The notes: a model not told the origin generated them from the sequence alone. A stretch of 64,000 bases of DNA from Candidatus Atabeyarchaeum deiterrae (GCA_037310415.1 CP147780.1:2080001-2144000), one strand, 5' to 3'; positions 9,860 through 24,546 are shown, counted from the stretch's first letter. Numbers and translations are program-made.

Positions 9860-10324
9860 TTGAGAGCAATGGCAAACATACGAAAGTTAGCAAAAAGTGT
9901 AGAAACTGAGGAAGGCGTGGTTAGAGTGAGCATGAGCTTACCTAACGATTTGCTGGAAGATTTTGATGAAACTGCAAAGAAGAAAGGGTACTTCAAAAGG
10001 TCTGAGGCCATCAGAGATGCTTTGAGAAACTTCATCTTGGAGAGCAAATGGGCCACAGATGAGAACTCTATCTTAGCTGGAACTATATCAATGGTCTACG
10101 ACCATGAAGTAAGATCTCTAGTAGACAAATTGATTGACCTTCAGCATGACTCCGGAGTACTCATTAAGGCCTCGTTACACCTTCACCTTGACGAGCACAA
10201 CTGCATGGAAATACTTGCTTTGGAAGGTAAGGCAAAGGAATTGAAGAGGCTATCAGAAAGTATGATAAGTAAGAAAGGAGTCAAGACATTGAAACTCACG
10301 ATACTTCACGCGAGAACCACTTAG
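9860..10324 (+). CDS. nikR: nickel-responsive regulator NikR
   Basis: RHH (RVSMSLP..RSEAIRDALR) plus YDH, LQH, HLHL..HNCME Ni ligands. Confidence 0.95.
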   Translation: MRAMANIRKLAKSVETEEGVVRVSMSLPNDLLEDFDETAKKKGYFKRSEAIRDALRNFILESKWATDENSILAGTISMVYDHEVRSLVDKLIDLQHDSGVLIKASLHLHLDEHNCMEILALEGKAKELKRLSESMISKKGVKTLKLTILHARTT

Positions 10325-10503
10325 CACGTGATCTCTTGGGCGTACTGCCTTACGTAGCGTTTATCTACTTATTCGCAGCTATTTTCCTAGAAACGTGAAT
10401 GGGGAATGGTTCTTCCTTACGGTGACCAGTCGCGGCTGGCAATACGTATAGTCCTAGAAGGCATCCAGTCTGCCAATAGTCGTACTCAGGGTGTGTAATT
10501 GCT

Positions 10504-13500
10504 GTGAAAGCTACAAATAACGAGGGCTCAGCGAAGAAAGTGATCAGATCCGGACATTACTTTTTGTTCGACTTGGATGACCGAGTCATCCACTCTAGAT
10601 TAAGTGAAGCAAATGGAGTGAAGATAAAGAGTCAGAGTTTTCCAGCAGCTAGGCTTAGTTCACTCGTTTTTGGCGCTATGATCTCCGACAGGCGGGTGTA
10701 CAATCCGAACGACACGATTAGAATTCTCGTGGCGTCTCCTGGCGGTGCAGGGAGAGGCGCTCACTTGGATATTCTTTATGGCGGAAAGCGCGAGGTGCTG
10801 AGCGACAACTTTGTGCTTGACGATTACGGTGTCCACCTGTGCGAGTTGAAGGGAATAGAAGAAACAGGTGAATACACAGCGACTGTTACCACCTCTGCCA
10901 CTGTCGGGAGTGGCAAGAACACGCAGGTGGAGACGAAATCATTCAACTGTGACTTCACTATTGCCCAGCATACCCTTAGTCCCCTACTAGTTCAGATCAA
11001 GAAGCAGGTTATCAGCGGAGATACGTTGGACGCTGAGCTTCTTGCTACCGTGCTGAACCAACCGTACACCGGCTCTATGAGAGTTGGATTGTATTGTGAT
11101 TACTGTAAGCAAGTCGTAAACGAGATGTCCGCCGAGACCAAAAAAGGCTCCTTCAGTCTCAAAATAGGTTTGAGTGGGCATACGGGTCCATTCAGACTCG
11201 AATTCTCCACTCCAGACGGAAACACAGCTTCCGTGTCACTTCAATCTACAAGGGTTGAGGAGCGCCAAGAGATCCAAGTTGGCAACCTCGGAGAAATCGT
11301 GAATGTCGCTCTTATCCCAATACCTGACGGAACGAATGTTCGGGGAATCAACTGGGCGCCTCGAGGTACGTCAACAGCTCCCGTGATCGTCAAGAGCGCA
11401 GAGTCCGACAGAATTGATGTGCATGTTGCAAGGAATCTCGACTACGTCTATGTTCACTCAGTTAACCCGTTCACGAAGGAGGCGAAGCAGTGGTTCAAAG
11501 GTCCCGTCAAAGAAGGTGAAGAGTATTCTTTCAAGAATAGCGCGCCATACCAGATCGTCTTGGTTGGATGCATAATCAATGCTAAGGAGCAAGCCTTGTT
11601 CGAAGGCAGAACCATAGTCTTCTGCCCGGAGGAGCTTGAAGTCAAAGTCAGTGCTCCCTCGAAAGTTGAGCCAAGCGAAGAAGTAACGATCACCCTAGAG
11701 ACAAACAAGAAGGCACAGTGCCTCCTCATGGTGTTCGATGAGAGACTCGATACCGAGAACATCACTGGCAAACTTGGAAAAGACATCTACAATCAAATCA
11801 AAACGCTTGGAAGCATCGAGGAACTGATGATGCAATTTGAGCCAAAAAGAGAGGAAGTATTAGAGGCGAGGGAGATGACCCGTCCTTCTGGAACGGGCAG
11901 TCGTCCCTACTCCGCTCAGCCATCAGCGGTCCCGCCCATGGTCAAGATGGCTGCAAGAGCCATGGCTGCTCCACTGCCTTCGGCGCTTATGAAGTCAGGA
12001 ACAGCCCGCTCCTACGCCGCTGCAGACATTGGAACCGTTGCCGCAATGATAACTGCTGAAATGCCAGCATATATGGCTGCTGCGCCCAGGAGGGCATGGT
12101 TCCCCAAGATACTTGCTTGCAAGCTGATAGAAGTTGAGGGAGTTCACGAAGAACGCGTTAGACTCGGTGATACCATAACGAAGTGGAAGGTTCAAGTGTA
12201 CGCCTTTGCTGACCTCGACTACATATCGAACTCAATTGACATCGAAGCTGATAGGAGTGTAGTGGTTGATGTCGACGTCCCTTCGATGATAGATGAAGGG
12301 GATGAGTACTATGGTAAAGCAGTTTACCATGTTGCTGAGGGGAAAGCAAAATTGCGGGTAAAGCTTCCTGACGGGAGCTTCTATGAAGGAGAAGTCGAGG
12401 GAGATGGATTTCGGGAATTCAAGCTCCCAGGACCAGGCACTGTTGAAGCCGAGTTGACTTCTCCCAAGGGAAGCGACTCGATAGTGAAGAGCGTAGACCC
12501 ACAAGTAAGTGAGAAGGTAACGGTTTCAGCTCTAAGCCTCTTGGAGAAAGGTGAGGAGCTACCAATCGATGTCGATAGAAAAGTCTTCATTTACACAAAT
12601 GTGAAATCACTACTCTCCTATTCAGTGAGGTCACTTATCCAATACCCATTTGGGTGCGCTGAGCAGACGAGCGCAAAGCTCTGTGGACTTGCAGTGGCAT
12701 GGGAATTCGGAGAAAACACAAATGAAATAGCACAGATGATCGACGCTGGACTCTCAAGGATGACCAAGTTCATACAACAGGATGGACTCTACTCACTTTG
12801 GGAGGGCGCCAAAGAAGGAACCCCTGAAGTCACAAAGAAAGTCCTGAAGAACCTGTCACCCCTAATAAGACTCGGGCGATTCAAAGAAAAGACAACACCT
12901 CTCATAGAGAAACCCGTGCAGGAACTTGAAAAGAGGAAAGTCGCAGACAACACGCTACTCTCTCTCAGCGAGAAGTTCATGGCACCCATGACGACCGTTG
13001 AGGACGCAGCCAACATAGCCATCTACAGCGGAGGAAAACGCAAGGAAGCGTTGAAGTTCATAGAATCGAAGGCGGTCGAAGGGTCAGGGGGCACAGAGGT
13101 CCACTGGGAACCCGCTCAGGCAACATGGGGTGGAGTTCTCGAATCAACAGCTACATGCCTTCGCGCTCTTCACGCATCGGCTGACGACAAACATCAAACC
13201 CTCTTCAGGAAGGGCTTCAAGTTTGTGGGAAAGAGGATTGTTGGGGGAAGACTGCACTCGACAGCGGATACAAGAGCATTGATCGAACTCTTCGGTGCAA
13301 TGAAAGATATGGATACCAAACCGAAGTTCTATTATCAAACATACATGAAGAGCGATCCAAGCACGCCAGTGACCAAGACGGAGAAGGACTTCGAATCAGG
13401 TGACTCCAATGGGATCATTGCTGTCGACGACGAAGCCGAAAGCGACATGTCAGCAAAGGGAAGAAGGCTCATAGCACACAGCATGCTTTTCGCTAGAGTC

Positions 13501-13851
13501 GACGGCATTGAAGTCATAGATTACAAGAAGACCAAGTCCAACTTCAACTTCGACATGAAACTTGAGAAAATGTCGCTGAAGCTTGGCGAACGCATAAAAC
13601 TCACATTGACCCCAAAGGACCAGTCAATATGCCCAGTATCCAAGGTATTTCTGCCGGCTAACGTGGCCTTCTTGGAAGGAGGAGTAAACGTCCAGACGAT
13701 ATCGAAACCTATAACTGAAGGAAGCATCGTCCTAGACCTCATAGGAACGGCACGCGGAAAATGCAGACTTTACGCCGTGCTTTACGACATGTACGACTCA
13801 AACATGGTCGGGGTCGCAATCCCGGCACGAGTGGACGTCACGTCCCCTTAA
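10504..13851 (+). CDS. alpha-2-macroglobulin/thioester-containing protein, paralog 1
   Basis: MG2-like SDRRVYNPNDTI; bait-like low-complexity segment; RRAWFP..LGDTITKWKVQVYAF A2M motif; YPFGCAEQT thioester; QQDGLYSLW TED motif. Confidence 0.85.
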   Translation: MKATNNEGSAKKVIRSGHYFLFDLDDRVIHSRLSEANGVKIKSQSFPAARLSSLVFGAMISDRRVYNPNDTIRILVASPGGAGRGAHLDILYGGKREVLSDNFVLDDYGVHLCELKGIEETGEYTATVTTSATVGSGKNTQVETKSFNCDFTIAQHTLSPLLVQIKKQVISGDTLDAELLATVLNQPYTGSMRVGLYCDYCKQVVNEMSAETKKGSFSLKIGLSGHTGPFRLEFSTPDGNTASVSLQSTRVEERQEIQVGNLGEIVNVALIPIPDGTNVRGINWAPRGTSTAPVIVKSAESDRIDVHVARNLDYVYVHSVNPFTKEAKQWFKGPVKEGEEYSFKNSAPYQIVLVGCIINAKEQALFEGRTIVFCPEELEVKVSAPSKVEPSEEVTITLETNKKAQCLLMVFDERLDTENITGKLGKDIYNQIKTLGSIEELMMQFEPKREEVLEAREMTRPSGTGSRPYSAQPSAVPPMVKMAARAMAAPLPSALMKSGTARSYAAADIGTVAAMITAEMPAYMAAAPRRAWFPKILACKLIEVEGVHEERVRLGDTITKWKVQVYAFADLDYISNSIDIEADRSVVVDVDVPSMIDEGDEYYGKAVYHVAEGKAKLRVKLPDGSFYEGEVEGDGFREFKLPGPGTVEAELTSPKGSDSIVKSVDPQVSEKVTVSALSLLEKGEELPIDVDRKVFIYTNVKSLLSYSVRSLIQYPFGCAEQTSAKLCGLAVAWEFGENTNEIAQMIDAGLSRMTKFIQQDGLYSLWEGAKEGTPEVTKKVLKNLSPLIRLGRFKEKTTPLIEKPVQELEKRKVADNTLLSLSEKFMAPMTTVEDAANIAIYSGGKRKEALKFIESKAVEGSGGTEVHWEPAQATWGGVLESTATCLRALHASADDKHQTLFRKGFKFVGKRIVGGRLHSTADTRALIELFGAMKDMDTKPKFYYQTYMKSDPSTPVTKTEKDFESGDSNGIIAVDDEAESDMSAKGRRLIAHSMLFARVDGIEVIDYKKTKSNFNFDMKLEKMSLKLGERIKLTLTPKDQSICPVSKVFLPANVAFLEGGVNVQTISKPITEGSIVLDLIGTARGKCRLYAVLYDMYDSNMVGVAIPARVDVTSP

Positions 13852-14068
13852 CCTTGCTGGGATGCACCGATTCAGCCTCTCACCGTCACCGGAGTCAGTC
13901 GTGTGGAACCTTCATACTTTCCTGCTATTCGAATCGTTCTTTCCTCTGATTAATCGCGTCTTGCGAACCAAACGCAATTAGTGTTATGGCAACGAAACAG
14001 AGACACACTTTGTCAGTGATACTCTACTTAAGTATGCTCGCGCGTGGTATTAAACAAGGTCACTCTGT

Positions 14069-17000
14069 TTGATTAGTAGCGTGTTAAGGACGTGGGCAGT
14101 TTTGGAAGATCGGAGTGGGGGAGACAAACCAGTAAAGGGTATCAGAGCTGCACATTATTTCCTGTTTGATCTGCAAGATGTAAACATTTATCCCAGATTC
14201 AGCGAATCAAAAGAAGAAATAAAAGTCAAAGGTCAGAGTTACCCGACAGCGAAGATAGAATCGCTTCTATATGGTGCCTTGATCTCCGACAAGCGCGCCT
14301 ATGTTCCCGGAGATACCGTGAGACTTCTAGTTGCTTCTCCCGGCGGCGCCGGAGTACATGCTAGCCTAGAGGTTACCTTTGAAGGTCAACGAACAATACT
14401 AGCTGACGAATTCATACTCGACGACTATGGCGTATACCTATACGAGCTGAAAGGTCTCGAAGAGTCAGGCACGTATACTGCCACAATCGTAACTAACGTG
14501 ACCCCTCCTCACAAGGACGTCCAAGCAGATAGAAAAGTCTTCAGTTGTGACTTTGCTGTAACCCGGCGCACACTGAATCCTCTATCGGTTCAACTCAAGA
14601 GGCTGACTATCAGCGGAGACTCGCTAGATGCTGTAATTGTGGTTACGGTTCTCAACCAGCCGTATACTGGCTCCATCCGAATCAGGTTCTATTGCGATTA
14701 TTGCAGACAGATAATAAACGAAATGTCCGCGGAAGCCAGGAAGGGCTTATTCTACCTTAAGATCGGCCTGAGAACGCACACTGGACCATTCCGACTTGAA
14801 TTCACTACGGCTGATGGAAATACTGCTTCCTTGACACTGCAATCCATTGGCGCTGAGCAGCAACGAGAGATCCAAGTTGGTAATCTCGGCGAAGTCGTAA
14901 ATGTCGCCCCCACGCCGATGCCAGATGGTAGAAATTTGAGAGGTATTTACAGGGCGAGCCGTGGCGTGTCGGCTACCCCGATAATTGTCAAAGGAGGAGT
15001 CTCAGACAAAGTTCGATTGCAGGCTACTAGCGCCCTTGATTACGCCTGTATGTACGCCTTCAATCCATTAACGAAGAAAGTCAAGCAATGGTCTAAGAAG
15101 CGTGTCAAAGAGGATGATGAGTTCCTTTTCGACAACAGTGCGCCTTACGAAATCATTCTGGTCGGATGCATAATCAATGCCAAGGAAGAAACAGTGTTTG
15201 AAGGTAGAACTGTTGTCTTCTACCCAGAGGAACTTGAGGTCAAACTCAGCACACCGCCAAAAGCGCAGCCTAATGAGGAAGTGAGAGTTGCCTTAGAGAC
15301 GAGTAAGACAGCTCAGTGTCTCCTCATGGTTTATGACGTAAGGCTTGATACTGAAAATCTGACCAGCAAACTTGGAAATGATCTCTACACTCAAATAGCC
15401 ACGCTTGAAGCCATCGAGGAACCCGGAACTCGATACCAGCAAAGAAGAGAAGAAGCCCAATTCGGTAAGGATGCAACAGACTTACCCTCAGGCGTTCATG
15501 TCGCCCACCCAGTTGGCTCGCTTGGGGTCCAACCCGAGCCGAAGACTGCTGGGAGAGTGATGTCTGCTCTGCCACCCACGCCTGTTATGAGACTTCGAGC
15601 TGACATGTCTGAAGCGTCGGCTGCAAGAGCGCTTGCATCTATTGTCGCTTCTGAAATACCAGTTCAACTGGTTACTGCACCGAGACGAGCATTGTTTCCA
15701 GAAATCCTCGCATGCAAGCTAATTGAGGTCGATCGAGTTCACGAAGAACTCGTCAAGCTCGGCGATACCATAGGGAAGTGGAAAGTACAGGTGTACGCTT
15801 TTGCTGACCTCGACTACATTTCAAAGTCTTCTGAAATTACCGCTGACAAAACGGTGGCAATTGACATTGACATCCCCACCATGATAGAAGAAGGCGATGA
15901 GTACTATGGAAAAGCAATCTACCACGCAGCGGAAGGAAAAGCGAGACTACTTGTCAAGTTGCCTGATGGAACTACCTATGAGGATGAGGTTGAGGGTGAC
16001 GGTATCAGGGAATTCAGGTTATCCAGACCAGGCAAAGTTGAGGCTCAGCTGACTTCACCTAGTGGCGTCGACTCAATAATGAAGAGCATGGACTCCCAGT
16101 TGAGTGAAAAAGTGACAGTCTCAACGCTGACCTCGCTCGAGAAGGGCGACGAGCTATGCATTGAAGCTGGCAAGAAGTTATCTATCTACAATTCCATGAG
16201 ACCGTTGATCTCGGAATTGGCTAAGGCATTATGCCAGTATCCGTTCGAGTGTTCAGAGCAGACCAGCGCAAAGCTCTGTGGACTTGCAGTAGCATGGGAA
16301 TCCGGCGAAAGGACCAAAGAAGCAGCACAGATGATCGACGCTGGACTCGCAAGAATGGCGAAGTTTCTGCATCCAGATGCGCTCTACTCTCTTTGGGAGA
16401 ACGCTAAACTAGGAACCGCTGAAGTCACAGCAAAAGTGCTGAGGAATCTAGCACCGATTAGGAGAATAGACAGATTCGAGGAAAAGGTGAACCCGCTCAT
16501 AGTGAAATCTTTACAAGAGTTGCTTAGGAGAGACGTCCTGGATAACTCGCTACTCTCACTCAGCGAGAGATTCATGGCTCCGATATCAACCGTTGAGGAC
16601 GCGGCGAATATCGCTACATACAGAGAAATAAGGGGTGGAATGCGAAGAGGGGCCCTCGAATTCATCGAGTCCAAGGCAATCGGGGAACTTAGTGGAGACG
16701 AAGTCTACTGGGAGCCCTCAAGAGCATCTTGGGGTGGAGTTCTTGAAGCGACGGCTACTTGCTTGCGCGCACTTTATGAATCAAGCGATGAAAATCGTCG
16801 CTTTCTTTTCAAGAAAGGCTTCAAATTCGTGACAAAGAGACTTGCAAACAGTAGACTTCATTCGACAGCGGACACTAGAGCACTAATCGAGCTTTTCGCT
16901 GCAATGAAAGACGTCGGTGCGCGACCAAGGTTTTCCTATCAGACCTACGTCAAGGCCAATCCAGCTTCTCCAGTCATAAAGACAGAGAGAGATCTCACAA

Positions 17001-17455
17001 TAGGCAAGTCGGATGTTTTCATTCCAATCGATGACGAAGTCCACACTGACATATCCTCGCCGGGCAGAAAACTCACCGCACGTAGCCAACTTTTTGTGAG
17101 AATCGATGGCACCGAAACGGTAGACTATAAGAAGGTCAGGTCAACTTTTGACTTCGATGCCAAGCTCGACAGGATGATTCTGAAACTCGGACAGCGAGTA
17201 AAACTGACAGTGACACCGAGACACGAGTCAAGATGCCCAGTTGTTAGAGTCTTCCTCGCGCCTAACCTAATCTCTCTAGAGGGCGAAGTGAACATGCAAA
17301 CAATATCAAAACCCATGGTAGAAGGAAGCATCGAGCTTGATTTGCTGGCGGCAAGTCGTGGAAGATCTAGACTCTATGTAATGCTATATGACATGTACGA
17401 GCCGAACATGATTGGTATCACTATTCCGATCGGGATAACGGTGACGCTGCCATGA
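14069..17455 (+). CDS. alpha-2-macroglobulin/thioester-containing protein, paralog 2
   Basis: Colinear with paralog 1; SDKRAYVPGDTV, RRALFPE..LGDTIGKW, YPFECSEQT. Confidence 0.85.
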   Translation: MISSVLRTWAVLEDRSGGDKPVKGIRAAHYFLFDLQDVNIYPRFSESKEEIKVKGQSYPTAKIESLLYGALISDKRAYVPGDTVRLLVASPGGAGVHASLEVTFEGQRTILADEFILDDYGVYLYELKGLEESGTYTATIVTNVTPPHKDVQADRKVFSCDFAVTRRTLNPLSVQLKRLTISGDSLDAVIVVTVLNQPYTGSIRIRFYCDYCRQIINEMSAEARKGLFYLKIGLRTHTGPFRLEFTTADGNTASLTLQSIGAEQQREIQVGNLGEVVNVAPTPMPDGRNLRGIYRASRGVSATPIIVKGGVSDKVRLQATSALDYACMYAFNPLTKKVKQWSKKRVKEDDEFLFDNSAPYEIILVGCIINAKEETVFEGRTVVFYPEELEVKLSTPPKAQPNEEVRVALETSKTAQCLLMVYDVRLDTENLTSKLGNDLYTQIATLEAIEEPGTRYQQRREEAQFGKDATDLPSGVHVAHPVGSLGVQPEPKTAGRVMSALPPTPVMRLRADMSEASAARALASIVASEIPVQLVTAPRRALFPEILACKLIEVDRVHEELVKLGDTIGKWKVQVYAFADLDYISKSSEITADKTVAIDIDIPTMIEEGDEYYGKAIYHAAEGKARLLVKLPDGTTYEDEVEGDGIREFRLSRPGKVEAQLTSPSGVDSIMKSMDSQLSEKVTVSTLTSLEKGDELCIEAGKKLSIYNSMRPLISELAKALCQYPFECSEQTSAKLCGLAVAWESGERTKEAAQMIDAGLARMAKFLHPDALYSLWENAKLGTAEVTAKVLRNLAPIRRIDRFEEKVNPLIVKSLQELLRRDVLDNSLLSLSERFMAPISTVEDAANIATYREIRGGMRRGALEFIESKAIGELSGDEVYWEPSRASWGGVLEATATCLRALYESSDENRRFLFKKGFKFVTKRLANSRLHSTADTRALIELFAAMKDVGARPRFSYQTYVKANPASPVIKTERDLTIGKSDVFIPIDDEVHTDISSPGRKLTARSQLFVRIDGTETVDYKKVRSTFDFDAKLDRMILKLGQRVKLTVTPRHESRCPVVRVFLAPNLISLEGEVNMQTISKPMVEGSIELDLLAASRGRSRLYVMLYDMYEPNMIGITIPIGITVTLP

Positions 17456-17487: not shown

Positions 17488-17850
17488 TCATGGCAAAGCT
17501 AGGTCAACAGTCTTAGTCTGTGTTCTCCCGGCAACTAGTATGGTGTAGTTTCTCTGCGGTAATATGAGCCATTTGACTGACAATACATATTGTCCATTGT
17601 AAGCATGTGCGAAGGTTATCTGCCCACCCACTGTTATACCTGATCTCTCTACAATCCGACCTGTTGCATCATAGAGCGTCACTTGGGCTTCACCATAAGG
17701 GTATCGAGATATGCTATATGAGTTGTATGTGACATTCAGCGTGAAGTCTGTGTAGAGTAAAACGTCCACCATAATTCCCGCGAAAACCCCAAAGACCATA
17801 ACTGAAACGAATGCGATGGCGAGAAGCTTCCTTGCCCTAACTTTCAACAT
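17488..17850 (-). CDS. membrane-anchored beta-sandwich protein (carboxypeptidase-regulatory-like domain)
   Basis: N-terminal TM; AQVTLYD..T..GQITF..GQYVLSV pattern. Confidence 0.55.
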   Translation of the reverse strand: MLKVRARKLLAIAFVSVMVFGVFAGIMVDVLLYTDFTLNVTYNSYSISRYPYGEAQVTLYDATGRIVERSGITVGGQITFAHAYNGQYVLSVKWLILPQRNYTILVAGRTQTKTVDLALP

Positions 17851-17892: not shown

Positions 17893-20808
17893 CTAGAACT
17901 CTGTTCTCGCTATTATTTCGTCTTGGACAAGCCTGTCGAGATCCGTAAACAACGCACTGTAACCTGCAACTCGGACCACTAGGTCGCGGTGTTCTTCTGG
18001 GTGTTTCTGTGCTTCGAGTAGGTCTTCGCGGCTTACAAAGTTGCTTTGCATGTGCATGCCGCCCAGCTTAAAGTATGATTTGATTAGCGACTTCAAGTTC
18101 TCTATTCCTTCATCGCCTCGAAATGTGGTTGGATTGAACTTCAGAGCTAAGACGGCGCCATTCGACACGAGTTCATAGTTTAGTTTCGCTGCTGATTTTA
18201 GGAGGGCGGTTGGTCCAAATGCTGCGGTTCCAGGCTCAGGTGTGACTCCACACGATAATGCTTTGGTAGCTTTCCTGCCGTTCGGAAGGGCTCCGACCAG
18301 TAGACCAAATGTCACATGCATTGTTACTGAGTACAGGCCGGGCTGATACCATCCGCCTCTTGGGTTCTTGAATTTCTCGACTTCTTTGCAGTAGATCTCT
18401 CCGACCCGACGAGCATAGCTATCTGCCAAGTCGTTATCTGTCCCATACTTTGGAGCTTGGTTGACTAGCATTTGCCGGAGCGGTTCGTAGCCTACAAAGT
18501 TCTTGCTGAGTGCCTTAACAAGGTCACCCATTGATACCCTTCCTTCTCTGAAGACGAGTCGGTCGATTGCAGTCAATGCATCAGCGACCGTGGCAACCCC
18601 AACTCCCTGTGGTCCGGTGAAATTGTATACAGCTCCCCCTTGTGTGAGGTCTTTGCCTCTGGTCAGACAATCATCTGTTAGTGATGAAGCGAATGGAGTG
18701 GGCTTTATTTCTTCGTGCACTCTCGCGAGAACATCCAAGCCTTCTATCATTCTACTGACAAGGTATGCGACTTGCTTCTCGTAGGCTCGTGTCACGTCTT
18801 CCATTGACGTGAATGTGTTTGGGTCTCCAGTTTGAAGCCCGATCTGCCCTACCATGACTCTCCCTTTACCATCGTTTAAGGCGAGCTCGAGGCAGAGACC
18901 CAAGTTGAGCAGCGCAGCGTCAGAGGAAGTGAAGCTCTTTCCTGGAACAGCCGGTTCAACGCATCCGATGATCCCGTAGTTGCGGGCTTCTTTCAGTGGT
19001 ATCCCTTTCCGAGTCATTGACTTGATGACCAAGTCATCGTTAAATACGTGGGGCAGCGTTCCCATTTCGAGAGCTGCACTGCAGACTTCAGTAAGGAGTT
19101 TCTCTGGGGTTGATCTGTGGATTCTTATCCCGAAGTTTGGTTGAGGAGTTTTCACGCTTCTCGCAGCGTTTAGAATCACATATGACAGGTTATTGGTAGC
19201 GTCGTTTCCGTTCTCATCTATTCCACCTATTACAGCATTTGCGAAGGCAGTCAACCCGGCGAAAGCTATGCTGGCATCGGTGTCAAATAGCGGTATTACG
19301 CTGGACAGCTTGAGAAAGAAGCATTCAAGCAGTTCTTGAGCTTTGTCACTGCTTATTCTTCCTGCGTTCAGATCTGCTTGGTAGTACGGGCTCAGATATT
19401 GATCCATTCTCCCGAGAGAGATAGCAGACTCGTAGCTCTCCATTTGGCATGCAAGATGAGTAAAGAACATGGCTTGCAGGCACTCCTGGAATGTCTCCGA
19501 GGGATTCTCAGGAACTTTGGCGCATATCCTTGCAATCTCCTTGAGTTCTGCGCGTCGTTCCGGGTTTTTCTCTGCATCGGCCATTTGCCCAGCAAGTTCG
19601 CTGTGTCTGTTTGCGAAATGTATAACACTCTGGCACGCTATCTCTGTAGCGTCACAGAATTCGATTTTGTGCTGCATCTCAACGCTTCTAGGTTTACCTT
19701 CATCAAGTGCCTCCTGTCGCAGTTTCTTGGCCTCGTTGACTATCTGCTTGAGTCCAAGTTTCAGCACACGCTCATGGTTTATCAGCATGTGCCCAATTCC
19801 CGCTATCTCTGTTAAGATGAATACTCCAAGCCTATCGAATAAGTCGGCAACTTCTTTTGGCAAGTATTTTCTTGTCAGATCGACAATTGTTTTGCCCCGC
19901 CAGTAAGGAAATACCTTCTCTTGCAGTTCCCGCTTCTCATCTTCGGTTATGGTGAACGGATTCGTGCTTCTTTGTCCTATTCTGTTGAGTTCTCCTTCTA
20001 TCCGTGGTCCGAGTGCTGTCTCTGGGTAGACCCCTGCCGCAAGAGGCTTACTTGTGATATTGCCAACTATGAACTCGTCAGGATAGATGTTGACGGTGAG
20101 ATTGTCCAGAGTAAGCTTCAACGCTTTTGCCTGCCGGATGACGGCTGGCTCTCCCTCAGTTGATTTGTGAGATTCAGTGTAATATCTTGCTCTCTCGACA
20201 CATATCTCCCTCCGCTGTGTCAGGAAACGTTTCTTGAGGCGATTCACTCGCGACTCTGCGGAATCGGGCTCAGGGGACGGCTTAGGCGCACCTTCGTGAA
20301 CGCCTCCTTTTGTGGGCGTCTCACTAACGATGCCCAACTCTTTGCAGTACTCGATATACGTTCTTATGGTTTGGGGAAGTGTTCGTGTCATCTTTGTAAC
20401 GACGCTTCTGTCGCCATCAGTTCTCACGGAATCGGATCCGAATGCCTGAAAAGTGCTTAGTCTGCCTGAATACAGTTCATGAAACGTATTGGCACTTAGG
20501 GTCAAAGTCACGTCGGGTGTTTCCTTGGCTTTGCCTTGAAACACTCTCACGCGCTTTCCAGTTTTGGTATCGATAATGATGAAGACCTCTGGATATTCGA
20601 GATGAATTTGAATAATGGCATTTAAGTCCAACAATGCGTTGGCGACTTCTGGATTTCTATTGGCTCTTCTGTAGAATTCCACCAAGAACTCTTCAGCTTG
20701 TCTTGGATTCTTTAAGTAAGGGAATTCATCCTTTTCGATTGCTGTTCTTGCAGTTGAAGACATGTGTGGTCTCCTCTCCTGCCGCCCCGCTTCTGACGGG
20801 TGATTCAC
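17893..20808 (-). CDS. glycyl radical enzyme (PFL2/dehydratase-like) with N-terminal SCP2 domain (likely start 20763)
   Basis: ICVERA, GRMDQ, GIIGCVEP Cys loop, VRVAGYSA Gly loop; N-terminal PDVTLTLSANTF..SGRLS.FQAF..V..DGD SCP2 pattern. Confidence 0.88.
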   Translation of the reverse strand: MNHPSEAGRQERRPHMSSTARTAIEKDEFPYLKNPRQAEEFLVEFYRRANRNPEVANALLDLNAIIQIHLEYPEVFIIIDTKTGKRVRVFQGKAKETPDVTLTLSANTFHELYSGRLSTFQAFGSDSVRTDGDRSVVTKMTRTLPQTIRTYIEYCKELGIVSETPTKGGVHEGAPKPSPEPDSAESRVNRLKKRFLTQRREICVERARYYTESHKSTEGEPAVIRQAKALKLTLDNLTVNIYPDEFIVGNITSKPLAAGVYPETALGPRIEGELNRIGQRSTNPFTITEDEKRELQEKVFPYWRGKTIVDLTRKYLPKEVADLFDRLGVFILTEIAGIGHMLINHERVLKLGLKQIVNEAKKLRQEALDEGKPRSVEMQHKIEFCDATEIACQSVIHFANRHSELAGQMADAEKNPERRAELKEIARICAKVPENPSETFQECLQAMFFTHLACQMESYESAISLGRMDQYLSPYYQADLNAGRISSDKAQELLECFFLKLSSVIPLFDTDASIAFAGLTAFANAVIGGIDENGNDATNNLSYVILNAARSVKTPQPNFGIRIHRSTPEKLLTEVCSAALEMGTLPHVFNDDLVIKSMTRKGIPLKEARNYGIIGCVEPAVPGKSFTSSDAALLNLGLCLELALNDGKGRVMVGQIGLQTGDPNTFTSMEDVTRAYEKQVAYLVSRMIEGLDVLARVHEEIKPTPFASSLTDDCLTRGKDLTQGGAVYNFTGPQGVGVATVADALTAIDRLVFREGRVSMGDLVKALSKNFVGYEPLRQMLVNQAPKYGTDNDLADSYARRVGEIYCKEVEKFKNPRGGWYQPGLYSVTMHVTFGLLVGALPNGRKATKALSCGVTPEPGTAAFGPTALLKSAAKLNYELVSNGAVLALKFNPTTFRGDEGIENLKSLIKSYFKLGGMHMQSNFVSREDLLEAQKHPEEHRDLVVRVAGYSALFTDLDRLVQDEIIARTEF

Positions 20809-21834: not shown

Positions 21835-22995
21835 TTAGAAATCGATTGATTTGTTCCTGAGCATACAGTCGAATATCTTTGTGAAGTCTTCATTTGTTGC
21901 GTTTCTTGGGCTTGTAAAAGAGGTCGGATCCTCTGAAGAGAATTTCACCAAATTGGGAATCAACTTTTCGAATTTGGCATCTGCGATGCCTAGACCCCTG
22001 ATTGTTGTTGGGAGTTGTATCTTGGTGAGCAATTCCCTGATCATGGCTGAGAGCCTCTTAGCCGGATCCTCAGGTGCGGCTCCCTTGATGTCAAGCATTC
22101 TTAGAATCTGAGAGTATCTTTCTTTGGATGTTTCAGCACAGAACTCTATCGCGTAAGGAAGCGCAAATCCCACCGCCGCTCCATGAGGAAGATGCAGTAG
22201 GGCACCTATGCTGTGTCCCATGGCGTGAGCGATTCCGAGACCCGAGTTGTTCATAGCAATTCCTGCGAAGGTTGCCGCGTAGTGCATCTTCTCCATCGCC
22301 GTCTCATCACCTGTCTTGAAGGATTTCTCAAGGTATTCGAATACGGTTTGGATAGCCTTCATCGCGTGCGCGTCACTGAAGTCAGTGTGCATCTGGGTGA
22401 TGTATGATTCAATGCCGTGAGCGAGAACGTCAATCCCAGTGGTTGCTCTGAGCTTCGGTGGCATTCTATAAGCTAGCGTTGGATCCAAGATAGCAACATC
22501 TGGAACCAATTCGTAACAGGCTAGCGACATTTTGTTGCCGCTCTCCGAGTCGGTGATGACGCATCCTAGACTTGCCTCCGATCCTGTTCCTGATGTTGTT
22601 GGGATGGCTATTAGCTTCGCTTTGGTTCTGAGATTGTATGTCTCTAAGGGGCTCATATTGCACAGCTTCACGTCGGGTCGCTCATAGTTGAAGAATGTTC
22701 CTTTTGCGACGTCTATCGAGGAGCCTCCACCGAGCCCAATGATCAGGTCTGGTTCGAATTCTGTTGCTAGCTGGACACAGCGCGCCACGGTTGTGTCCTT
22801 CGGGTCGGGCTCAACTTCGTCGAAAACCGCAACCTTGGTGCCGCCATCCTTCAGACGCTTCTGGACTTCGTCGACTACCCCCAAATTCTTGAGCGTCTTA
22901 TCAGTGACGAGTAAGACGCGTTCCGCTTTGATTTCTGCTATCCTATCTATGGCGCCCGTGCCGAAATAGATTAGAGGACACTTGAACAATTTCAA
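21835..22995 (-). CDS. iron-containing alcohol dehydrogenase
   Basis: GGGSSID, PTTSGTGSE, DxxxH, HAMGH, HG metal ligands. Confidence 0.93.
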   Translation of the reverse strand: MKLFKCPLIYFGTGAIDRIAEIKAERVLLVTDKTLKNLGVVDEVQKRLKDGGTKVAVFDEVEPDPKDTTVARCVQLATEFEPDLIIGLGGGSSIDVAKGTFFNYERPDVKLCNMSPLETYNLRTKAKLIAIPTTSGTGSEASLGCVITDSESGNKMSLACYELVPDVAILDPTLAYRMPPKLRATTGIDVLAHGIESYITQMHTDFSDAHAMKAIQTVFEYLEKSFKTGDETAMEKMHYAATFAGIAMNNSGLGIAHAMGHSIGALLHLPHGAAVGFALPYAIEFCAETSKERYSQILRMLDIKGAAPEDPAKRLSAMIRELLTKIQLPTTIRGLGIADAKFEKLIPNLVKFSSEDPTSFTSPRNATNEDFTKIFDCMLRNKSIDF

Positions 22996-23391: not shown

Positions 23392-24546
23392 TTAGAAGTC
23401 AATAGGCTTGTCTTTCGTCATGTACTCCAGTATCGTTGTGAACTCTTTTGTCGTGGGTACTCTGGGACTTGTGAATGTGCACAAGTCTCCTGCAGCGAAC
23501 CCCGCCATGGTCGGGATCTTGCTTCTGAATTCGTCTTGATCGATTTCAAGATCCTTTATTGAGGTGGGTTCCTTGATCTCCGTCATTAGGCCCTTCACCG
23601 CAGTGAGTAGTTTCTGAGCTGAGCTCTCTTGCGTGGCGCCCTCTACTCCGATAGCCCTGAGGAGTTCCAAGTACTTGTCCTTGGCCGTCTTGGTGCAGTA
23701 CTCTATCGTGTAAGGCAGCGCCCATCCAACTGCTTGTCCATGTGGTAGGTGAAATGCTGAGCCTACCGCATGACCAAGGCTGTGAGCAATGCCAAGACCG
23801 GAGTAGCTCATCGCCGATCCAGCGAGACTCGCGGCGTAGTGCATCTCTTCCATTGCTATCTCGTTGCCAGTCTTATACGATTGCCCAAGATAGCGGAAGA
23901 CTGTCTGAATAGCCTTGATGGCTGACGCACTTGTGAATTGGTTGCTCATTTTGGTAAGGAGGCTCTCTACTGCGTGAACAAGGGCATCAAGACCCGTGTC
24001 TGCCCTGAGTTTCGGCGGCATTTTGAAGGCCAACTGTGGATCCAGAATAGCAACGTCTGGAACCAATTCAAATGATGTAAGAGTTAGCTTCCTCCCCGAC
24101 TTGGAATCTGTGACAGCGAGTCCGATGCTCACCTCAGAACCTGTTCCTGATGTAGTCGGTATCGCCACAAGCCTTGCCTTCTTCCTCAAGCCATAATTTA
24201 CTAGAGGGCTGACAGTAGCAAGCTTAACATCAGGTCGTTCGTACAATAGAAAGGCGCCTTTCGCAACGTCTATTGGAGATCCTCCGCCCAGCCCCATGAA
24301 CAAATCTGGCTTGAACGCCGCTGCGATCTCAGCACAGCTGGAAACGGTTGAGTCTTTCGGTTCAGGTTCAACCTCGTCGAAGGTCTTTATCTCTGAGAAC
24401 TTTCCTTTTAGGTGCTTCTCTAATTCACTCAGAAACCCCAGCGCCCTGATCTTCTTATCCGTGACTATCAGAGCCCGTTCTCCTTTGAGATTGGCGATTC
24501 TTCCGATCGCGCCTTTGCCAAAGTATATCAAGGGACTCTTAAACAA
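23392..24546 (-). CDS. iron-containing alcohol dehydrogenase (paralog)
   Basis: GGGSPID, PTTSGTGSE, DALVH, HSLGH. Confidence 0.93.
   Translation of the reverse strand: MFKSPLIYFGKGAIGRIANLKGERALIVTDKKIRALGFLSELEKHLKGKFSEIKTFDEVEPEPKDSTVSSCAEIAAAFKPDLFMGLGGGSPIDVAKGAFLLYERPDVKLATVSPLVNYGLRKKARLVAIPTTSGTGSEVSIGLAVTDSKSGRKLTLTSFELVPDVAILDPQLAFKMPPKLRADTGLDALVHAVESLLTKMSNQFTSASAIKAIQTVFRYLGQSYKTGNEIAMEEMHYAASLAGSAMSYSGLGIAHSLGHAVGSAFHLPHGQAVGWALPYTIEYCTKTAKDKYLELLRAIGVEGATQESSAQKLLTAVKGLMTEIKEPTSIKDLEIDQDEFRSKIPTMAGFAAGDLCTFTSPRVPTTKEFTTILEYMTKDKPIDF

Follow-up and report, generated by a model that had tools for sequence, protein, structure and literature searches.

Two adjacent genes occupy positions 10,504 to 17,455 of a 64,000-nucleotide stretch of the Candidatus Atabeyarchaeum deiterrae genome (GCA_037310415.1 CP147780.1). 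This stretch, referred to below as the window, corresponds to positions 2,080,001-2,144,000 of the single-contig, 2,756,679-bp genome. The products of the two genes, P0001 and P0002, resemble alpha-2-macroglobulin (A2M) and the thioester-containing proteins (TEPs) of animals in a compact form that lacks an export signal (Table 1). An earlier reading of this DNA (the original prediction) had described tandem paralogs of about 1,120 amino acids (aa), each with an intact Cys-x-Glu-Gln (CxEQ) thioester motif, together with the FP..DTI..W motif of A2M. All of these features were recovered: both open reading frames (ORFs) are intact, the thioester motifs read GCAEQ and ECSEQ, and FP..DTI..W falls within the Pfam A2M match that represents the seventh macroglobulin (MG) domain, MG7. 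The two proteins can be aligned from end to end at 59% identity, and the true start of gene 2 may alternatively be a GTG at 14081 or a TTG at 14102. The pair is real and not a chance reading of the sequence, as related genomes carry the gene and a second strain carries the complete tandem.

Table 1. Features of the tandem macroglobulin-like genes, of their products, of adjacent genes in the window, and of TGA-containing relatives
Feature	Position	Strand	Remarks
Gene 1 (P0001), compact signal-less A2M/TEP-like	10504..13851	+	GTG start, 1115 aa, intact ORF
Gene 1 CxxC (Cys198, Cys201), second macroglobulin-like domain	11095..11106	+	Invariant in 11-sequence alignment
Gene 1 His226	11179-11181	+	Same CxxC/His positions in gene 2
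Gene 1 bait-like loop, residues 415-534, in MG6 equivalent	11746..12105	+	pLDDT <50
Gene 1 MG7 motif FP...LGDTITKW (WFP...LGDTITKW), start of Pfam A2M domain	12100..12186	+	PF00207 match
Gene 1 thioester domain, residues 699-935, CUB-nested	12598..13308	+	Model, structural and profile matches
Gene 1 motif GCAEQ, residues 717-721 (Cys718, Gln721)	12652..12666	+	
Gene 2 (P0002), divergent tandem paralog	14069..17455	+	TTG start, 1128 aa, intact ORF
Gene 2 bait-like loop, residues 426-544	15344..15700	+	Aligned to gene 1 loop
Gene 2 thioester domain, residues ~709-948	16193..16912	+	67% identity to gene 1 thioester domain
Gene 2 motif ECSEQ, residues 727-731 (Cys728, Gln731)	16247..16261	+	
Pfam A2M_BRD	P0001 residues 374-414		25.4 bits (cut-off 22.7)
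Pfam A2M (PF00207, MG7)	P0001 residues 545-606		23.2 bits (cut-off 21)
Pfam TED_complement	P0001 residues 706-783		
NikR-like regulator, upstream conserved neighbour, same strand	9860..10324	+	Pfam NikR_C and RHH; functional link to gene pair not indicated
Glycyl radical enzyme (PFL-like plus Gly_radical), N-terminal SCP2 sterol-carrier-type domain	17893-20808	-	
Two Fe-type alcohol dehydrogenases after glycyl radical enzyme	21835-22995 and 23392-24546	-	
TGA at thioester Cys in relatives	L009:8284-8286; L028:4329-4331 (same as L029:4294-4296); L030:7224-7226		

Matches of the two proteins to the A2M family are weak at the level of primary sequence, and those in Pfam nevertheless occur in the A2M order. 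The PF00207 score of gene 2, 19.7 bits, is slightly under the cut-off of 21, with the MG7 motif still visible in the translation, and NCBIfam contained no meaningful match for the proteins. A single-sequence search of PDB sequences gave a best E-value of 0.17, to A2M at the motif; a profile was required. A full-length model of P0001, built by AlphaFold2 with 11 homologs, reached a mean predicted local distance difference test score (pLDDT) of 68 and a predicted template modelling (TM) score of 0.44, with residues 247-292 and 415-534 disordered. Compared over its full length by Foldseek, the model matched ECAM, A2M, A2ML1, CD109, TEP1, and C5 at E 1e-34 to 1e-27, and VIA-align returned Z-scores of 20-22.6 in alignments running from model residue ~155 (target residue ~311-336) through the C-terminus, as far as the final residue of TEP1 and A2M. 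Native-state structures scored higher than protease-induced ones (Z ~22 versus ~17), which fits, as soft evidence, a model in the resting conformation.

From these comparisons, P0001 is predicted to begin with a short conserved strand (G17, F20, F22) and one MG-like domain (~58-132), followed by equivalents of MG4 (143-246), MG5 (294-371), an MG6 that is interrupted by the 415-534 loop, and MG7. A CUB-like domain (601-698 and 936-1010) then encloses the thioester domain (TED; 699-935), and MG8 (1011-1115) ends the chain. Target residues 311-336 are taken here to be the start of MG4, in line with the C3 and TEP1 domain boundaries. Because the alignments start at MG4, with one MG-like domain before it, P0001 appears to lack roughly two to three of the N-terminal MG domains that eukaryotic TEPs possess, a count that depends on this boundary and agrees with the compactness originally proposed. 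The eight-domain layout (MG1-MG8) of eukaryotic TEPs was accordingly not found in P0001, and neither anaphylatoxin (ANA) nor C345C domains had a Pfam match in the proteins. What the proteins do share with the A2M/TEP superfamily is the MG array with a loop in MG6, MG7, the CUB-nested TED with MG8, and CxEQ; the nested thioester domain, the intact motif, and the hypervariable bait-like loop bear out the placement of the pair within this fold.

The thioester domain is the best-defined part of the structure. Modelled separately with 40 homologs (pLDDT 96.5), it forms an alpha/alpha barrel, as the original prediction had expected, with TM-scores of 0.6-0.73 against the TEDs of TEP1 (0.73), A2M, A2ML1, CD109, C5, C4d, and ECAM, and with a Z-score of 17.7 and a root-mean-square deviation of 3.5 against the TED of C5 in VIA-align. 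Profile comparison of the domain matched C4 (7.8e-10), ECAM (1.3e-9), TEP1 (1.7e-7), and A2M (3e-7), as well as C5. Conservation was assessed in 101 full-length relatives obtained with a family profile from 1.84 billion representative sequences. Within this set, C718, E720, and Q721 are 100% conserved, D412 and R414, which close the first half of MG6, are 99% conserved, and the last domain retains L1050 (98%), P1051 (94%), G1060 (96%), and M1096 (97%). Two motif classes predominate, CAEQ (32 relatives, window genes included) and CCEQ (65 relatives). Gene 2 has Glu and Ser in place of the Gly that precedes and the Ala that follows the cysteine in 96% and 100% of the subfamily, respectively. The alignment gave no placeable position for an equivalent of C3 His1104, the residue that decides between hydroxyl and amine reactivity.

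The interruption of MG6 is the least conserved block of the protein, with 37% identity between the paralogs compared with 56-73% for the other domains. Its composition is Met/Ala/Pro-rich in Atabeyarchaeia and highly charged in Methanosarcinales-type relatives, and in gene 1 it is flanked by a near-invariant D412-x-R414 on one side and R530/F533/P534 on the other. Because of its position in MG6, its disorder, and its variability, all of which are as in a bait region, the 415-534 loop is regarded as bait-like.

The cysteine of the motif is further singled out by an unusual form of variation. In 18 of the 150 best-ranked relatives, the gene call ends one position before this residue, and in three independent bacterial loci its codon is an in-frame TGA (..YPFG-TGA-AEQTS..), after which the frame remains open for 366 codons (L009), 374 codons (L028/L029), or 140 codons to the end of the contig (L030). 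TGA is a normal stop in L009, because the same gene terminates at another TGA; at the cysteine position it probably encodes selenocysteine (Sec), giving a Cys/Sec pair. A short conserved hairpin is located 17 nt 3' of the TGA, with no covariation among the three sequences and no match in Rfam. Read in this way, the TGA variants underline this cysteine as the putative reactive centre.

Pairs of Sec and Cys normally signal redox-active sites, and the alpha/alpha barrel also resembles, at lower rank in VIA-align, the barrels of glycoside hydrolases and lyases. These two observations lend themselves to a different explanation, in which no thioester forms at all: the cysteine (Sec in some relatives) would be a redox or metal residue, or the barrel would bind a ligand, for instance a glycan or isoprenoid, and the scaffold would have another role. 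This explanation is improbable, however, given that the Glu and Gln of CxEQ, and not just the Cys, are invariant in the 101 relatives, and that the trap architecture is entire, from the bait loop in MG6 through MG7 and the CUB-nested TED to MG8. Elsewhere in the protein, the CxxC pair and His226 recur in ~30 of the 101 relatives (the CAEQ subfamily) and are absent from the CCEQ subfamily, which makes them a candidate subfamily-specific metal or redox site.

The second distinctive property of the pair concerns its location. Neither P0001 nor P0002 contains a hydrophobic N-terminus, lipobox, membrane segment, or C-terminal anchor, and the maximum Kyte-Doolittle mean over 19 residues is 1.23 for P0001 and 1.20 for P0002, compared with 2.2 for the signal peptide of a control, an A2M secreted by another Asgard archaeon. 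A signal peptide missed through a wrong start was considered and rejected: in-frame stops lie 8 codons upstream of the gene 1 start and 5 upstream of that of gene 2, and no signal that could be joined was found in the stop-to-stop frames preceding either gene. A hydrophobic micro-frame of 20 residues at ~10338-10398 was likewise discarded, since two in-frame stops and ~100 nt stand between it and gene 1. With hydropathy low, upstream stops near, and alternative upstream frames excluded, the earlier statement that the proteins lack an N-terminal signal, lipobox, or transmembrane segment holds.

The same appears to be true of the family as a whole. An N-terminal hydrophobic window of at least 2.0 occurs in only 1 of the 101 full-length relatives, and Pfam-confirmed N-terminal fusions in relatives comprise a Ser/Thr kinase (Pkinase), FHA, a MerR helix-turn-helix (HTH), zinc-ribbon, and ankyrin, with no membrane segment between these fused domains and the macroglobulin part in the relatives examined. 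The fusions provide the strongest argument that the whole family is cytoplasmic, because all of them are domains of cytoplasmic type. Marks of an extracytoplasmic location (signal peptide, lipobox, glycosylphosphatidylinositol (GPI) anchor) were not found, and a cytoplasmic location, which had been proposed for the window proteins, is likely both for these and for the family. Export by an unconventional route, such as vesicles, lysis, or a secretion system not yet known, would let the proteins act extracellularly in the manner of A2M or ECAM; all characterised family members do act outside the cytoplasm, and a canonical A2M of ~2040 aa with a clear signal peptide occurs elsewhere among Asgard archaea, such that extracellular trapping exists in the phylum. 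It is nonetheless quite improbable, even more so than chemistry without a thioester, since signal, lipobox, membrane segment, and C-terminal anchor are lacking in both copies and in 100 of the 101 relatives, the kinase, FHA, and MerR fusions without a membrane segment put the module in the cytoplasm, and the 13 cysteines, CxxC included, show no evident disulphide pattern.

Comparison with known systems shows both shared and distinct features. Insect TEP1 and human A2M, A2ML1, and CD109 (PDB 2pn5, 4d94, 7von, 7q1y, 8s3o) share with the window proteins the domain order from MG4 on and the CxEQ motif, and they give the best structural scores (Z 21-22.6; TED TM-score up to 0.73). In contrast to the window proteins, which have no signal and approximately one domain in place of MG1-MG3, the eukaryotic TEPs are secreted or GPI-anchored, glycosylated, and disulphide-bonded chains of 1300-1470 aa with eight MG domains. 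The TED of the window proteins is also shorter (~240 aa versus 300), sequence identity is 11-15%, and Pfam scores lie close to the threshold or beneath it. Type I bacterial A2M (ECAM/YfhM and SaA2M; PDB 5a42, 4ziq, 4u48) is a prokaryotic CxEQ trap of the monomer type, matched by Foldseek at E 2.9e-34. ECAM is a periplasmic lipoprotein of ~1650 aa and 13 domains, typically encoded beside pbpC, whereas the window proteins (~1120 aa) have no lipobox, no Pfam bMG match at E up to 1, and no pbpC neighbour. The canonical secreted A2M of Asgard archaea (e.g., that of locus L031) belongs to the same phylum and superfamily and shares the TED, but, unlike the window proteins, it has strong Pfam matches and a signal peptide; proteins apparently of this canonical type were detected in ~24 of 400 Asgard genomes, compared with 7 of 400 for the compact form. 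Archaeal A2M homologs with Ig-like/MG domains and a TED with CxEQ have been reported (Makarova et al. 2021, PMC8416519). From these, the window proteins differ in being signal-less, in belonging to another family with many bacterial members, and in being encoded among metabolic genes.

Taken together, these features suggest that both products are cytoplasmic covalent traps or tags of the A2M/TEP kind, used once and triggered by proteases, a reading to which we assign a probability of roughly 0.5. A protease-triggered thioester mechanism is the most economical one because the trap architecture is complete and CxEQ is invariant. After folding, Cys718 would attack the side chain of Gln721 to form an internal thioester, buried against the last domain, where a near-invariant Asp-Met-Tyr (1095-1097) could act as a shield. 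An endopeptidase cut in the bait loop would then cause a rearrangement that exposes the thioester, which would acylate a lysine (or a hydroxyl) on the protease that made the cut or on a protein close by. A trap confined to the cytoplasm would be set off by an intracellular protease, whether an endogenous one or one introduced by a virus or mobile element. Having two copies with different bait loops would let the pair respond to a broader set of proteases, and the reactivity of copy 2 may differ, owing to its altered residues beside the cysteine and in the last domain.

Several observations weigh against this interpretation. To our knowledge, every characterised thioester A2M/TEP (A2M, C3/C4, insect TEPs, CD109, ECAM) is extracytoplasmic. 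The sequence matches to the A2M family are weak, and the full-length model is of moderate confidence only, which limits what it can say about domain packing and burial of the cysteine. The Sec variants are typical of redox sites and leave room for other chemistry. Among the loci examined, no protease gene was found as a conserved neighbour; a search of PADLOC-DB 2.0 (E up to 0.01) gave no match for P0001, P0002, or two distant relatives; and the locus lies among genes for nickel transport, a glycyl radical enzyme, and alcohol dehydrogenases and not in a defence island. A role in defence is plausible.

The relatives also point in another direction. In addition to the fusions described above, a kinase-FHA protein is encoded next to the module at one locus and MerR and VWA proteins at another, suggesting that the module is coupled to signalling in many bacteria and favouring a sensor variant of the same mechanism. 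In that case the proteins would be cytoplasmic sensors and not inhibitors: a proteolytic, nucleophile, or oxidant event would lead, through a conformational switch or tagging, to signalling or gene regulation, and the Atabeyarchaeia proteins would represent the stand-alone module. The N-terminal kinase, FHA, MerR HTH, zinc-ribbon, and ankyrin fusions and the kinase-FHA or MerR and VWA neighbours support such a role, and the Met-rich bait loop could respond to oxidation. The window proteins themselves are without a signalling domain, however, and their sole conserved same-strand neighbour is the NikR-like regulator, with no link indicated. A sensing function is thus rather unlikely for the pair, although it is compatible with trapping and overlaps with the protease-triggered mechanism.

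If a family that retains the bait loop, the TED, and an invariant CxEQ indeed operates without an export signal, bait-and-trap chemistry would occur inside prokaryotic cells too, where it could be used against the proteases of viruses and mobile elements or to control the cell's own proteases. More broadly, and tentatively, the family may consist of widespread, undescribed intracellular thioester macroglobulins (in some bacteria probably selenoester) that provide cytoplasmic protease surveillance, in which a foreign or misregulated protease would cut the fast-evolving bait loop and then be covalently captured or tagged, an event wired to kinase/FHA or MerR signalling in relatives. Were this true, covalent immunity of the complement/A2M type would move inside prokaryotic cells, Asgard archaea included. 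The family is readily testable, as its members are soluble single chains of ~1100 aa, and it offers a compact scaffold for thioester formation and activation.

The distribution of the family is wide. The profile search detected 2555 relatives at E <=1e-3 and 266 at 1e-30; this search of representatives with a hidden Markov model was far richer than a pattern-based search of genome contigs, which found 2 loci only. Among 400 Asgard genomes, the compact form (E <1e-40) occurs in 7, which belong to 5 families, and ~24 others contain TED-only matches within frames of ~1950-2080 aa (one a cut frame of 848 aa). One of the latter, in genome G142 (L031:4473-10604, minus strand), encodes a canonical A2M of 2043 aa with a clear N-terminal signal peptide and Pfam matches to TED_complement (8e-27), MG2, A2M_BRD, A2M, and bMG10; a canonical secreted A2M is absent from the genome of the window. 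Outside Atabeyarchaeia, the compact form has named relatives in a Methanosarcinales metagenome-assembled genome (MAG), Planctomycetota, Vulcanimicrobiota, and Eremiobacterota, and two further loci have the bacterial-type neighbours xseB-ispA-dxs. As judged from these sequences, the family is large, broadly prokaryotic for the most part, and patchy in Asgard archaea, which departs from the original description of an archaeal system. It is apparently undescribed. No signal-less or cytoplasmic A2M family was found described in the literature searched, the Atabeyarchaeia genome papers and one supplement set do not mention macroglobulin or thioester, and a 2026 review of A2M evolution contains none of the terms archaea, prokaryot-, cytoplasm, and periplasm.

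The occurrence of such genes in an Asgard archaeon makes a link to the origin of eukaryotic TEPs and complement tempting, and a bearing on that origin had been part of the original prediction. The host and the presence of TEP1 and A2ML1 among the top-ranked structural matches are what one might cite for the Asgard genes as vertical ancestors or close kin of the eukaryotic proteins. Against this, the compact form is confined to 7 of 400 Asgard genomes over 5 families; the relatives outside Atabeyarchaeia are those from the Methanosarcinales MAG, Planctomycetota, Vulcanimicrobiota, and Eremiobacterota; and the closest outgroups of the compact Asgard form are bacterial or Methanosarcinales sequences. 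The TED is moreover equidistant from bacterial and eukaryotic counterparts (ECAM 1e-9, C4 8e-10, TEP1 2e-7), with profile E-values for ECAM and for C4/TEP1 of the same order of magnitude, and the eukaryotic TEPs are secreted proteins with eight MG domains. Such an ancestry is therefore very improbable, the sequence comparisons lend no support to a particular tie with eukaryotic TEPs or complement, and the complement-origin reading of the Asgard pair is corrected by the present evidence.

The tandem arose within the lineage of its host. Maximum-likelihood analysis groups P0001 and P0002 as sisters (support 100/99) within the Atabeyarchaeia clade, with a P0002 branch four times longer than that of P0001 (0.57 versus 0.14); the duplication is lineage-specific, and copy 2 is the faster-evolving one. 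The same tandem is found on a JGI (Joint Genome Institute) metagenome contig (L032) that samples another strain or a close relative. Between the strains, gene 1 differs at 60 synonymous and 46 nonsynonymous codons and gene 2 at 13 and 11, respectively; by a rough estimate, the nonsynonymous/synonymous ratio is ~0.25 for both genes (~0.27 for gene 2), and both copies are therefore under purifying selection. P0001 retains all family-conserved positions, while P0002 deviates at 3 of 29 (R265Q, P1064A, and G1073E), besides the G-to-E and A-to-S changes that flank its cysteine. Copy 2 thus appears to be functional yet diverging, possibly with altered reactivity. In the comparison of gene 1 with its counterpart (L032:933-4283), 20 of the 46 amino-acid differences are located within the first 50 codons, which suggests an N-terminal tail that has recombined or evolves fast.

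Other observations at the locus and in relatives concern gene context and expression. Three near-identical contigs (175-188 nt) from one small wetland metatranscriptome map to gene 1, a weak indication of expression for which DNA carry-over is possible. No contig was placed on gene 2 and none came from three other runs, a blank that carries no weight as evidence of absence. The G+C content around both genes is the same as in the remainder of the window, and the upstream regions of the two genes are dissimilar. A promoter and terminator scan, whose coverage does not extend to archaeal promoters, returned counts at the level of shuffled sequence; in the same 64 kb, ARAGORN found 0 tRNA and Rfam 0 families at gathering score. 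No conserved functional partner was found, the adjacency of NikR being limited to close relatives. At two related bacterial loci only (L007:5658-7415 and L026:10271-12295), a DUF3352 protein of 585-674 aa is encoded directly 3' of the compact A2M-like gene, in the same orientation, and may act as its partner within that lineage alone. A Methanosarcinales-type relative, P0012, is preceded by a row of four small ORFs of 63-69 aa that are unrelated to one another (L008:171-1114), a layout that recalls a mobile-element or viral string.

The flanks of the pair in the window comprise NikR, a CbiMNQO-type transporter, the glycyl radical enzyme with SCP2, a TPR protein, and the two Fe-alcohol dehydrogenases; a nickel regulator happens to adjoin a gene with a candidate CxxC/His metal site. 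The small ORF that follows gene 2 (17488-17850) has no homology to the counterpart ORF in Atabeyarchaeia-1. The closest named relative, at 64% identity and with shared synteny, is encoded in the complete Promethearchaeati archaeon SRVP18_Atabeyarchaeia-1 genome, where its annotation reads 'alpha-2-macroglobulin family protein'. In that genome and in a JGI contig, the gene is present as a single copy, in the order NikR, A2M-like gene, and then, on the opposite strand, the glycyl radical enzyme and Fe-alcohol dehydrogenases, and the block formed by the latter enzymes is syntenic in Atabeyarchaeia-1 and JGI contigs.

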